Positions 3,128-53,309 of a stretch of 64,000 bases of DNA are shown piece by piece. Source of the stretch: a virus; the IMG/VR virus record IMGVR_UViG_3300044949_001245, positions 1-64,000 of that record, one strand, 5' to 3'. Position 1 is the first letter of the stretch, and every line of letters begins with the position of its first letter. Position numbers and translations under genes: made by a program. A model generated the notes under the pieces. It saw only the letters and a program-made list of their open reading frames with translations, ran no database searches and was not told the origin of the DNA.

Positions 3128-4610
3128 CGAACCATGATTTTATACTTTCTTCAATTTCTCGCATATCCTCATCCTCATAACACTCTATTCTGGAATTGCC
3201 GATGGTTTCCGAATAAACGTCCAATCTATTCAAACTATGTTCCGAAAAGTATTCACTTTCAACATCCATTATATCAATTATCACCGCCCTGTCTTTATTC
3301 TCAACCGCCCCTAGAACACGACCAGTTTTTTGAACTATGCTTGTTCCCTCTAGTCCTCCATCCGCTATTATCAGAACCTCTACTTCAGGCAATGTTATTC
3401 CTTTTTTGAATATGTTACTGGCCAATAGTATCTTGCCCCGACCTCTCAAAAATTTCTCTTTCTCTTCAACCCTCGTTTTTGAATCATCATCGCCACTTAT
3501 GAAAGGCTTTCCACTTGAGTCTGATATCAGATAGCCATGTTGTTTTGAGTTGAATAGTACAAGTGTCTTCCACTTATTCCTATCACACATGTTTATCAAA
3601 TCCAAAATAATTCTGTTCCTGTCTCTGTTCTCATGAATCAGCTTTTTAAGAAATTTGTGGTATTTTTCAGTTCCGACTAAATTCATAAACTGCTTGACTT
3701 TTTTACTATCATGAGTATGGCTTATCAGTATTGCCTTATCCAAGGCTAAATACCCCTCATCTTGTAGTCTGGATTTGGAAACATCATAAACTATGCCGCC
3801 AAAATATCCTTTCATTTTTAGATTGGAAATCAAGTTCCCCATCTGCTTGAATGGAGTGGCGGACAAACCTAGTAAAAAGTCAACGTTTGAACACTTCCTT
3901 ATGAGTTTCATTCTATTGTCGCCCAAGTATTCCTGAACCTCATCCACAATCAGAAAATTAACTTGTTTGAAATACCTCTCTAAATCCCTTGCTTCAGGCT
4001 TTTTTCTGTTGAAGACAGATGTGACTGTCTGAATCATAGCCACTGTTACTTGTTTGGGCTTTATTCCGTATGAATTTATGGTTCCAATTTCATTCTCAGG
4101 AACATTTAAGTATTTGGAAAGTTCCTCTATGGTTTGGTCAAATAAATCCGTTGTATCAACAAAAAACAATATCAAGCTATTCTCTACTTGCTCAATGACG
4201 TGTCTGATAATCTCTCCAGAAATAAATGTTTTGCCGCCACGTGTGGGGACAACCATCAGTCCGTAATTCTTTTCAAAAAAGGCAGACACCCCCTCACGCT
4301 GGTGTGGTCGCAACCGACTATCAAAAGACAAATCTGCTATCTTTACTTTTCTGTAATCTCTTTCAACTATTTGGACTGATATGTCCTCCTTATTCATATG
4401 GTAAACCGCCTCATCAATCAGTCCTATATCAAACCTGTTACTTGCGTCAAAAAGTCTGACGTGTCCATCCCAAATTCCTTTCTTGTACTTATCCGAAAAT
4501 TGTGCGCCATCCACCCAAATAGAAAAACAGTCCTTGAACTTGGAAATTTCTTTTGGTATATCAGAGTGGAACTGATACTGCTTTGCGGACACCCTTTTGA
4601 ACTCAATCAT
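3117..4610 (-). CDS. SF2 DEAD/DEAH-box helicase (UvsW-like)
   Basis: LRPHQ Q-motif, PTRGGKT, VDEVQ, GLSATP, QKTGRVL. Confidence 0.92.
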   Translation of the reverse strand: MIEFKRVSAKQYQFHSDIPKEISKFKDCFSIWVDGAQFSDKYKKGIWDGHVRLFDASNRFDIGLIDEAVYHMNKEDISVQIVERDYRKVKIADLSFDSRLRPHQREGVSAFFEKNYGLMVVPTRGGKTFISGEIIRHVIEQVENSLILFFVDTTDLFDQTIEELSKYLNVPENEIGTINSYGIKPKQVTVAMIQTVTSVFNRKKPEARDLERYFKQVNFLIVDEVQEYLGDNRMKLIRKCSNVDFLLGLSATPFKQMGNLISNLKMKGYFGGIVYDVSKSRLQDEGYLALDKAILISHTHDSKKVKQFMNLVGTEKYHKFLKKLIHENRDRNRIILDLINMCDRNKWKTLVLFNSKQHGYLISDSSGKPFISGDDDSKTRVEEKEKFLRGRGKILLASNIFKKGITLPEVEVLIIADGGLEGTSIVQKTGRVLGAVENKDRAVIIDIMDVESEYFSEHSLNRLDVYSETIGNSRIECYEDEDMREIEESIKSWFDEK

Positions 4611-4652
4611 GCTTTACAAATTAAAAAATTTTTACTCAGAAGCAAAGGTCTC

Positions 4653-4919
4653 AAAATCAAACCCCCTTTCCCCCTAGATGTTTTTACTCATCGCATTAGG
4701 CTGATAGTGCTCACAACCCCCTGAAAAGAACCACTACCATTTATCTCGTTTTTAGGTAACTTTGCTAGTCCACCCATCAACCTACTTATATTTGATTTTT
4801 AGTTTATATTCCTGTCTTGGAGTAAATGTGGTCTAGTTTAATGAGGTGTGCTCAGACTGGACTACCCCACACTCACCCCTACTTCGTCAACCTGCAGCCT
4901 TGTCTCCACTGGATATAAA
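4653..4919 (-). ncRNA. Putative structured non-coding element (RNA or ssDNA) upstream of the replication operon
   Basis: Nested inverted repeats 4803-4815/4908-4919, 4819-4837/4861-4879, 4697-4707/4774-4784 and 4653-4661/4791-4799. Most mismatches become G-U pairs only on the minus strand. No ORF. Confidence 0.5.
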
Positions 4920-4920
4920 T

Positions 4921-4945
4921 AAAAATGCCCCACTATTGCGGGGCA
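4921..4945 (-). terminator. Rho-independent terminator ending the tail operon
   Basis: Minus strand UGCCCCGC-AAUA-GUGGGGCA-UUUUU, about 30 nt after the stop at 4975. Confidence 0.85.
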
Positions 4946-4974
4946 ATTATTAAATAATGGGCTAAATAAATAAA

Positions 4975-5832
4975 TTAAGTAAATGTAAATATGACCTCAA
5001 GACACTCTTCATTGTCTCCATGCTCATCCATTGTGTTCTCATGAAACTCCGTTCCGAACTCCTCATCAAATTTTTTTTCAATTTCAAAACAACCTTTTTC
5101 TTTTGATGACTTCACTTTTCTAGTACACCATAAACCGATGGACTCACCAGGTTTCATTTGTTCAATTAGCAAAACTCCTTCATCTAAAAATCCTGATAAA
5201 TTCACTGGTTGTGATGTAGCTGTTCCAGGTGTTAATATAGAAATTGGGTCACCAGTTGATATCAAAGCCTTTCGCTGAAAGTAAACTTCCGTGTCTGACT
5301 TAAATTCGACATTGAAGTCAGCATTGTTTTCAAAAGCATCAACTAACCCAGAGACAACGTCAATTATTTCATCGCCACCCAAAGTGAAAGTAACTCCTAA
5401 AACACTCAAAACATCGCCAGCAACACCTGGTGTGAGTATTTTTAGGATACCATCCTCTCTCCTGCAATTAGGTTGGAAGAATTCAGCGTTGTACGGCATT
5501 TCATATACATTACCTATTCTTTCAATCAATATATTATCAATTGGTTCAACAGCAGCCCAAGAAAATTCAGCTTGGGCGACATCTTGTCCGAATTTCGTTT
5601 GATGTACCTGTTGTAGAATTACGTTGTTAACAGTGTTGCTTGAGTTATTTCTTAAAAAGAATGCTAGTGTAGTGTCTATTTGTTTATGCTGCTCATAGCA
5701 TCCGATGTCGTCAAACAAGACATTTAGCCTACCATTCGGAACAGGTGTGATTGAAATATAGCCACCAGTTGAGGCAGATACATCACGTTGTTCAGCGTTG
5801 GCGTGTTTGGCTCCTGATAATAAAAGTTCCAT
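4975..5832 (-). CDS. Putative tail/baseplate structural protein
   Basis: 285 aa; last gene of the tail module; beta-rich composition. Confidence 0.6.
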   Translation of the reverse strand: MELLLSGAKHANAEQRDVSASTGGYISITPVPNGRLNVLFDDIGCYEQHKQIDTTLAFFLRNNSSNTVNNVILQQVHQTKFGQDVAQAEFSWAAVEPIDNILIERIGNVYEMPYNAEFFQPNCRREDGILKILTPGVAGDVLSVLGVTFTLGGDEIIDVVSGLVDAFENNADFNVEFKSDTEVYFQRKALISTGDPISILTPGTATSQPVNLSGFLDEGVLLIEQMKPGESIGLWCTRKVKSSKEKGCFEIEKKFDEEFGTEFHENTMDEHGDNEECLEVIFTFT

Positions 5833-28512: not shown

Positions 28513-28549
28513 AAAAAGGGTGAGCAGATAAATACCCACCCACCCTTTT
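28513..28549 (-). terminator. Rho-independent terminator after major capsid gene
   Basis: Minus strand GGGUGGGUGGGUA/UAUCUGCUCACCC stem with G-U pairs, then a U-tract. Confidence 0.85.
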
Positions 28550-28575
28550 AACTTTGTATCACAGTTGGTTTCCTA

Positions 28576-47592: not shown

Positions 47593-47613
47593 AATTAATG
47601 ACTTTTGGATTTT

Positions 47614-48048
47614 TCAATTTTGTTTATCTAATAACTGTCGCTTGAACTTATTTATGTGCTTGTTGATGAAAGTTATTTCGATGTCGTCATCAGATGAATG
47701 ATGAATGAAAATGCGCCATGATTTCATTTTCACTATCATTTCATTTTCACCGCCTGAACTATCTGGTATTGAGTACGTTTCAGATGATTTTGATGAGTAA
47801 ATGAAATTGACTACATCCATGAAACACTCTACATCATCTTGCTCCGAAAATGAAAAAGTGACTAAACTGTTAACATCAGTGTTCAACAATTCAGCCACTC
47901 TAGTGTAATGTTCTACTTCCGTATTGGTCAGACTAAATTCACTTACTGCTTTGTAACGTAAACTTCTGTTGTTTGCGGACTGAACACACTCCGTTGCTTT
48001 CCCTCTCCAATTTTCATCTTCCAATACTTCTGGAACTCGCATAGCCAC
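47614..48048 (-). CDS. Hypothetical protein
   Basis: 144 aa; the start overlaps the upstream gene by about 100 nt and is uncertain. Confidence 0.55.
   Translation of the reverse strand: MAMRVPEVLEDENWRGKATECVQSANNRSLRYKAVSEFSLTNTEVEHYTRVAELLNTDVNSLVTFSFSEQDDVECFMDVVNFIYSSKSSETYSIPDSSGGENEMIVKMKSWRIFIHHSSDDDIEITFINKHINKFKRQLLDKQN
47629..47641 (-). promoter_or_regulatory. Candidate late promoter motif (ACAGTTATTA)
   Basis: Plus strand TAATAACTGTCGC, 37 nt upstream of ATG 47592, at the start of the portal operon. Confidence 0.5.
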
Positions 48049-50511: not shown

Positions 50512-50535
50512 ATTGTTTTAGTTATTAACTTTGTT

Positions 50536-52289: not shown

Positions 52290-53309
52290 TTAGTATGTTC
52301 TATGAAGTGTAAAATTCTTACATTGGATTGAGTCATGTATTTCAGTCTGACCCCATTGCGCTGTTATTGACAAGGTATTTGGAATTGTTGTATCCAAAGC
52401 TTCAACGCTGCTAAACATCATCCCTTTTAGTTGTCCTTGGTTATCGGTGTATAATATAGAACCAAAACAACTGATTTTCCCAGACACACCTAATTCATTG
52501 ATTGTAAATGACATTCTAATCTGAAATGTTCCATTAGTGGCATGACTCATTGACATTTCACCACTACTAGCCAAAAGTTGCGTGCCCGATGTTATGTTTA
52601 TTTTAAGTAAATGTCCGTTTTGAGTTGACAATATTCCGCTCAAAATTGCTTCAAATGAATCACCGACCTTAAATCCATCTGCCCGCACGTACAAACTCCC
52701 TACCCCTGCCCCAATCAGTTCGCCCGCAACTGTAGTGTTAGCAATTATTTGACCATCTGTTGTTTGAGCAAAAAGTCCTGTGTTTAGTGAGTTCAGAAAA
52801 TGCCAACCCTTATTTCCAAAAGCATCGGTTGAATATACTTTATTTGGGTCTGGCAATTCCTCATCAGCAACCAGCTGTATGTACCCTCCATCATCCTGAA
52901 TAGAATTTTTTTGAGCAGTGACGTCACGCTTGTTTTGCCACAAATCTGTAATGTCGGCTACAATTTGACTTATCAAACGCTCATCAGGAATGTATGGCTT
53001 ATTAAAAACTTGATTATTTCCATCTGTTGAATTCCAATCAACAGGCTGCTCTTTTAATGAATATCCAACACCTAGACTGCGCCAATAACTTGCGTCTGTT
53101 GGTGGTATTGAATCATTGTTCGCTATACAAACATAAATCTGTCCTCTGTACCAAACTAAATCCCCGATGAGATATGGGTTGCCAGTAGCATCTGAATGGT
53201 CAGCTGAAAATGGAAGTGCGGTCAGAACGACAGTACCACCGCCACCGCCACCGCCATCTGACTCATCTTTTAATCGCAATCTGTTTAACAGATAGTCAAA
53301 AAATATCAT
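52290..53309 (-). CDS. Putative virion protein with carbohydrate-binding (CBM5/12-like) motif
   Basis: Poly-Gly linker, then YLIGDLVWYRGQIYVC...PP...YW. Confidence 0.6.
   Translation of the reverse strand: MIFFDYLLNRLRLKDESDGGGGGGGTVVLTALPFSADHSDATGNPYLIGDLVWYRGQIYVCIANNDSIPPTDASYWRSLGVGYSLKEQPVDWNSTDGNNQVFNKPYIPDERLISQIVADITDLWQNKRDVTAQKNSIQDDGGYIQLVADEELPDPNKVYSTDAFGNKGWHFLNSLNTGLFAQTTDGQIIANTTVAGELIGAGVGSLYVRADGFKVGDSFEAILSGILSTQNGHLLKINITSGTQLLASSGEMSMSHATNGTFQIRMSFTINELGVSGKISCFGSILYTDNQGQLKGMMFSSVEALDTTIPNTLSITAQWGQTEIHDSIQCKNFTLHRTY

Follow-up and report, generated by a model that had tools for sequence, protein, structure and literature searches.

Two phage T4 replication genes are preceded by translational operators, a pseudoknot with A/U-rich repeats for gene 32 and a hairpin operator for gene 43. 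R-loop or G-quadruplex primer elements include mitochondrial CSB II, ColE1 RNA II and the T4 origin ori(uvsY), which sits upstream of uvsW. The nut sites of phage lambda and the boxA-boxC sequences of rrn operons are antitermination signals. Excerpts of one source describe putL and putR of phage HK022 as cis-acting antiterminator RNAs of about 70 nt with two stem-loops, located downstream of PL and PR (PMC9378689).

Comparative sequence analysis of an uncultured myovirus points, with about even chances by our reckoning, to a putative cis-acting structured 5′ leader RNA of the replication operon, some 130-170 nt in extent (about 4764-4629, minus strand). It would resemble the T4 operators in that a structured leader directly precedes the start of a replication gene and a single-stranded A/U-rich motif is repeated close to where the ribosome lands. 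The gene that follows differs, being a UvsW-like helicase or a small ORF, and no homology of sequence or structure is claimed. The likeness to the put RNAs would be one of architecture; no likeness of sequence was seen. As far as the excerpts describe them, these too are phage-encoded, have two stem-loops and act in cis at the head of an early operon, and putL carries a -10-like sequence (PMC9378689). The present element is longer, has a G-run in a loop and duplicated boxes, and occurs once per genome, whereas put occurs twice in that description.

The virus record, called G000, is 88.6 kb long, and its positions 1-64000 are the window, that is, the whole stretch of 64,000 nt under analysis. 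The phage is a myovirus, encoding a tail sheath, a baseplate wedge, a portal, a major head protein and a large terminase. A crAss-like affiliation, suggested by gut contigs of ~97 kb, was dismissed on account of the tail sheath and baseplate wedge encoded in the window. DNA of the phage has been detected in lake, freshwater, sludge and bioreactor metagenomes. Nearly all ORFs of at least 150 aa in G000 lie on the minus strand, the exceptions being two short plus-strand ORFs that overlap minus-strand genes, and GC skew is negative in every 1-kb bin without a turning point. The layout is one-directional and T7-like; since the skew is monotonic over the whole of this one-directional genome, it says nothing on an origin, either way.

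The helicase (UvsW_N at 41.6 bits against a cut-off of 25.3, with ResIII, DEAD and Helicase_C, in Pfam) opens the replication module and is followed by a 203-aa ORF, a DnaB-like helicase and a primase. Upstream of the non-coding gap stands a 285-aa ORF, for which PHROG and Pfam searches gave no match, so that 'tail terminator', its name in the initial annotation, is a tentative one, and further upstream, preceding it, an 826-aa ORF with tail-fibre matches. By the ORF map the gap is the largest ORF-free stretch in the window, as had been noted in the initial annotation; the runner-up (47593-47942) measures 350 nt. A G+C-rich hairpin with a T-run, as in an intrinsic terminator, was found in the gap only at 4945-4926, and not in the conserved element. 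Against a phage collection the helicase protein matched only UvsW-type relatives of <30% identity, so that no annotated close relative was at hand; blastn against that collection gave no match for window 4400-5100 or for the element of a distant relative. Excerpts of a study of Cellulophaga phage phi14:2 state that it makes abundant early intergenic RNAs (bioRxiv 10.1101/2020.03.07.982082). These cannot be linked to the element, because neither the helicase nor the G-motif was found in phi14:2.

The conserved part of the gap comprises about 130 nt beside the helicase gene (4747-4627, minus strand; Table 1). In the closest relative fetched, whose helicase is 74% identical, the equivalent gap is 368 nt long and only its helicase-proximal ~150 nt align. 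Helicase homologues with 68-94% identity (P0001, P0002 and P0004-P0010) were found as well. The loop of P1, UUUUCAGGGGGUUGU, contains a G-run, and GCC separates P1 from BOX1; in P3 the partners of the G-block are a pyrimidine run and ACC. An ATG in BOX1 opens a frame of five codons (4691-4674, minus strand), stopped by TAG just before the G-block. Relatives have frames of 2-15 codons at this position, conserved neither in length nor in sequence, and the short frame is probably not a leader peptide.

Table 1. Features of the helicase-proximal gap and its surroundings (window positions unless G000 is named).
Feature	Position	Strand	Remarks
UvsW-like SF2 helicase, 497 aa	3117-4610	minus	identified with PHROGs and Pfam; ATG at 4610
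Non-coding gap, 364 nt	4611-4974		between the 285-aa ORF and the helicase
BOX2 TGAGTAAAAA, an A-rich tail	4638-4629	minus	followed by 18 nt of A/T-rich sequence, then helicase ATG 4610
P3 hairpin, G-U-rich	4675-4638	minus	4675-4671/4642-4638 and 4669-4665/4648-4644
G-block GGGGGAAAGGGGG (G5-AAA-G5)	4674-4662	minus	5′ arm of P3
P2, small variable hairpin	GATG 4692-4689/CATC 4680-4677	minus	
BOX1 TGAGTAAAAA	4690-4681	minus	overlaps 5′ arm of P2
P1 hairpin	4739-4702	minus	TGGTAGT 4739-4733/ACTATCA 4708-4702; GTTC 4731-4728/GAGC 4712-4709
P0, candidate small hairpin	TAGGT 4784-4780 with ACCTA 4757-4753	minus	read by eye only
CAAAGTTA motif	4764-4757	minus	in loop of candidate hairpin P0
CAAAGTTA copies	4757-4764, 28549-28556, 50526-50533; G000 81647-81654		also in G003-G005
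Large hairpin with outer stem	4803-4919, core 4819-4879	minus	stable against shuffles; lineage-specific
Intrinsic terminator-like hairpin	4926-4945	minus	8-bp stem, 6 G-C pairs, then TTTTTATTTA; closes the upstream tail-module operon
285-aa ORF upstream of gap	4975-5832	minus	family not recognised

The initial annotation had placed a structured element in this gap, before the replication genes. A conserved, covarying, coding-strand-only element does adjoin the helicase, but the structure then proposed is largely a non-conserved one. Its main hairpin (4879-4861 with 4837-4819, minus strand) appears as described in the MFE structure, with 13 + 4 pairs including 3 G-U. Folded alone, these 69 nt reach -27.0 kcal/mol (z -3.54; 2 of 200 shuffles as good) on the minus strand and -21.9 (z -2.07) on the plus strand. 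The outer stem, 4908-4919/4803-4815, is likewise present in the MFE structure (z -2.06 for 4803-4919). The main hairpin has no alignable counterpart in the closest relative fetched (L001); it is real in this genome but lineage-specific. Of the second domain proposed, the bases of the pairing 4784-4774/4707-4697 exist, but the pairing forms only when that piece is taken by itself (z -0.86; 31 of 200 shuffles as good), and it competes with P1 because it uses bases 4709-4702 of that covariation-supported stem. A long-range stem, 4791-4799/4653-4661, is missing from the whole-gap MFE structure. The G-rich tract that had been singled out is exact and unique in the window, and so does the 10-nt direct repeat at 4629-4638 and 4681-4690 stand: none of 200 shuffles gave a common substring that long.

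Over its full length the gap does not fold better than shuffled sequence, z being -1.19 for the minus strand and -0.85 for the plus strand. Of the energy and covariation that had been proposed as a check, covariation proved strong, but the energy of the conserved core is ordinary (z +0.18). The lesson for method is that the thermodynamically striking hairpin is the non-conserved part, and the conserved part is thermodynamically ordinary. The Rfam comparison suggested at the same time yielded no family above threshold for window 4000-5600 (Rfam 15), and no likeness to its families was found. The best was GcvB, whose 22.7 bits fall short of the gathering score of 42 and in which only the terminator hairpin 4926-4945 aligned well; ten relatives' loci had no Rfam 15 match at E <= 0.1. 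ARAGORN found no tRNA or tmRNA gene in the whole window.

The distribution of the element was followed in 160 loci around helicase homologues, drawn from viral and metagenome collections. Of these loci, 75 have G5-N0-6-G5 upstream of the helicase on the coding strand, and none has it on the other. All 18 loci inspected have co-directional upstream genes and, ahead of the helicase or of a small ORF plus the helicase, a non-coding gap. A covariance model built from eight window-clade sequences (R1) has one match in the window, 4627-4747, at E 2e-21. It recovers the element in 11 relatives' loci at E <= 6e-7, all on the helicase strand; these include three from outside the seed, namely L007, L008 and L085, the last a near-duplicate of L005 from another collection. 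Two further loci score E 0.024 and 0.046. Searches with the models found the element nowhere else in the 88.6-kb genome, and a marginal R1 match at G000 69979-70118 (E 0.89) was dismissed, as it showed no likeness on inspection.

A second model (R2), built from 26 distant sequences, recovers 46 more distant loci with the same architecture at E <= 3e-9. It also matches the window-clade loci L005, L085 and L011 at the right place (E 3e-4 to 1e-3), and the window itself at the right place at E 0.43 only. Applied with filters off to 16 distant loci, R1 gave nothing significant (best E 0.076, at the right place). Because R2 scores the window at only E 0.43 and there is no direct significant match, the window clade and the distant clade would be joined indirectly, via intermediates and shared architecture. 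A scan of bacterial and archaeal genomes with a degenerate G-block pattern was swamped by chance matches of high G+C content, and R1 matched none of 80 fetched loci. One R2 match from that scan, L236, was dismissed as a gene end with a terminator-like tract.

In many distant relatives an ORF of 110-123 aa lies between element and helicase (L055 1990-2361, and its equivalents in L031, L074, L076 and L083). It belongs to no Pfam family and begins directly behind BOX2; this position makes it a candidate for a partner of the element. Three fragmentary contigs of relatives, L045, L078 and L080 (53%, 76% and 94% complete), break off at or near the element. The breaks fall inside it, 185 nt away, or between element and helicase (G001 52413-52560, G002 74693-74846, G003 start), and may mark genome ends or an assembly-breaking variable region at the junction of late and early genes. 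In the metagenome contig L142, positions 1-20 are joined directly to the G-block; the sequence resembles what we take to be a random-amplification primer and is probably an adaptor artefact.

P1 shows strong covariation in the window clade and the distant clade alike. In the window clade, all 11 pairs have changed on both sides and 90% of cells are paired; the covariation score, 0.62 against 0.10-0.15 for slid controls, is reached by none of 500 shuffles. In the distant clade, 97% of cells are paired in an unfitted MAFFT alignment of 26 sequences. The same 26 sequences hold 51 compensatory cells, against 13.4 +/- 2.6 in shuffles, and a count on 52 distinct rows of this clade gave 98 against 27. 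Among non-Watson-Crick cells the ratios of G-U to A-C are 12:2 and 3:1. A structure supported by compensatory changes, on the coding strand only, is what a leader RNA calls for, and P1 provides it. In the window, L004 and L012 the P1 loop has GUUCUUUU in its 5′ part, a boxA-like sequence followed by a G/U-rich stretch, as in lambda nut and rrn boxA; unlike these signals, it is partly base-paired, and other members carry degenerate forms (UUGUUUUU, CACUUUUU, UACCUUU).

Support for pairing in P3 is weaker than in P1. In the window clade 94-95% of its cells are paired, with G-U in 46 of 102, and changes are one-sided only (G-U, G-C, A-U). In L007 and L008, AAGA takes the place of the first G-run and pairs with UCUU. 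In each of the 34 sequences compared, the sense strand gives a more stable P3 than the antisense strand, yet the energy of P3 in the window is not better than that of shuffles (z -0.88), and across the window clade the hairpin is weak (-4 to -13 kcal/mol, z mostly near 0). Distant-clade sequences show complementarity between the G-run spacer and the bases that precede the C-run (for example AGUAG/CUACU, AUU/AAU, GAUU/AAUC). This spacer pairs better with its own box-2 flank than with the flanks of other phages (23 of 1000 permutations as good).

The box that follows P1 recurs after P3 in each phage, at +19 to +28 from the G-block. Its sequence is identical within a phage and differs between phages (TGAGTAAAAA, CCCAAGTAAT, CCCTAATAATGTT, CTGAAAAAGAG, CGCAAATATTGTAAAA), and the repeat is individually significant in 19 of 46 representatives. 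This pattern of identity within and divergence between phages points to a co-evolving reader. None of the pairings tried accounts for the duplication. A switch in which the G-block alternates between the box-1 and box-2 flanks was dismissed, as the box-1 flank has no lineage-specific complementarity to it (358 of 1000 permutations as good). The position of the element is constrained with respect to the start codon, as in a leader RNA: in 27 of 39 lineages the next ORF, whether helicase or small ORF, starts 30-57 nt after the G-block, and BOX2 lies 8-20 nt from the ATG. On the upstream side, the stop codon is anywhere from 106 to 842 nt away.

The G-runs and the boxes could also belong to a replication origin or primer region. 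A transcript over the non-template G5-N3-G5 would then form an R-loop or an RNA-DNA hybrid G-quadruplex and prime DNA synthesis, and the boxes would be initiator-binding repeats beside an A/T-rich stretch. Such an element would be well placed directly upstream of the UvsW-like helicase, the DnaB-like helicase and the primase, with two non-template-strand G-runs beside replication genes, as in the primer elements introduced above; the layout recalls CSB II, and ori(uvsY) has a similar place in T4. The confinement of the G-block to the coding (non-template) strand (75 loci vs 0), repeats that change from phage to phage like initiator-repeat pairs, and three fragmentary contigs ending at or within about 200 nt of the element all suit it as well. 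In CSB II-like elements at least two long non-template G-runs would be kept as such. Here they form a hairpin arm with a conserved pyrimidine partner, and L007 and L008 retain the pairing with AAGA and without the first run, so that the G-runs are not conserved as G-tracts. Covarying stems that tolerate G-U suit RNA hairpins better than sites in duplex DNA, and the tight spacing to a start codon is not what an origin would lead one to expect. Iteron-type origins have at least three direct repeats of ~17-22 bp by an A/T-rich region; here there are two repeats, of 10 nt. An origin at this place seems to us rather unlikely.

A promoter with a short 5′ untranslated region would also account for the spacing to the start codon. 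The element would in that case be duplex DNA, with tandem promoter or operator modules running from G-run to box, in which -10-like boxes are read by RNA polymerase and a phage-specific factor and the mRNA starts just after BOX2 with a very short leader. The modules are in fact imperfect direct repeats over about 40-45 nt that change together between phages, many boxes are A/T-rich and -10-like (TAATAAT, AGTAAT, GTAAAA), a fixed 8-20 nt between BOX2 and the ATG would suit a promoter, and no other promoter was found in the gap. Compensatory changes in P1 (11/11 pairs; 51 cells) are nevertheless unexpected in a duplex protein-binding site, as is the lineage-specific pairing in P3. No sigma-70-type promoter (-35/-10, 16-18 nt spacing) was found in 4400-5200, where shuffles give 2.2 sites. 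As a genome-wide motif the box was dismissed, as it has one further exact copy only, inside a gene; its not being reused argues against a general phage promoter. We regard the duplex-DNA explanation as improbable.

Another motif of the region, CAAAGTTA, may itself be a phage promoter or leader motif. Its exact reverse complement is TAnnTTTG, the -7 promoter box of Bacteroidota, which is not present on the coding strand of the gap (4611-4974). In four related genomes the coding-strand bias of CAAAGTTA is 9:1, 9:1, 14:4 and 9:1, and that of a reversed control pattern 3:3, 6:1, 7:4 and 6:5. Three of the nine copies in G000 fall in the 4.5% of the genome that is non-coding, and one intergenic copy there follows a terminator, 22 nt before an ATG. 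CAAAGTT or CAGAGTT occurs between terminator and P1 in 24 of the 35 lineages displayed. Coding-strand TAnnTTTG itself lies in five intergenic gaps (G000 about 68189, 69949, 70455 and 73049; window 40779), and the copy at G000 about 69949-69956 is a few bases before an ATG. These boxes hint at a Bacteroidota host and at very short leaders for the small-gene cluster at 68-73 kb.

Contigs from two metatranscriptome libraries of a bioreactor study, which contain only a small share of the window, cover only 4972-5400 of this region and leave the gap without RNA cover; they have 95-99% identity to the 285-aa gene, and DNA carry-over is a possible source of them. One of these contigs stops at 4972, beside the stop codon of that gene. 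The element might also be an independent, trans-acting small non-coding RNA, such as a decoy or mimic of a host RNA or of a CRISPR repeat, and not the leader of the helicase mRNA. It is structured, conserved, strand-specific and absent from Rfam, and its two repeat-like units lie about 50-75 nt apart, all of which would be in keeping with such a gene. No terminator was found after P3 or BOX2, however, and a conserved tight spacing to a start codon is unexpected for a free-standing RNA gene. No host counterpart came to light in the sole genome-collection scan, itself swamped by chance matches. A free-standing RNA gene is in our view very improbable.

Taken together, the start-codon spacing, the tolerance of G-U on the coding strand only and the covarying stems favour a leader RNA that acts in cis and has its second module next to the region where translation starts. 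This leader RNA would consist of two modules, each a hairpin followed by a single-stranded tail. In module A, P1, with a stem of 11-12 bp, would show a U-flanked G-run in its loop and be followed by BOX1; in module B, P3, with the G5-AAA-G5 block as its 5′ arm, would be followed by BOX2. The A-rich BOX2, ending 18 nt before the helicase AUG, would be the ribosome landing place on an mRNA without a Shine-Dalgarno sequence. A trans-acting factor, most simply a phage protein, would read the repeated hairpin-plus-box modules. Binding to module B, or folding of P3, would set how open the landing region is, and its openness would set when, or how strongly, the first replication gene is translated. 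The preferred mechanism is a translational operator read by a phage factor; in a sub-variant the two hairpins would take part in processive antitermination, as put does.

The clade that carries the element is a large one of uncultured myoviruses of ~90-110 kb from freshwater, rumen and human-gut samples, with many gut contigs of about 100 kb among its members. A search of the full-text literature for the motif strings returned unrelated papers only. To our knowledge, little is known of the timing of gene expression in such phages. If transcribed, the element would be a structured RNA not yet described, as far as Rfam 15 and the full-text literature search go, at the head of the replication module in a phage clade that is widespread and uncultured. 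A bolder reading, to which we give only a slim chance, is that it represents a new class of phage riboregulator, in which the box pair co-varies with a phage-encoded reader as a lineage-specific 'address'. If that were true, the address would tie the onset of early or replication genes, or replication priming, to one phage, and would insulate it from related co-infecting phages, as promoter-polymerase pairs do in T7-like phages.
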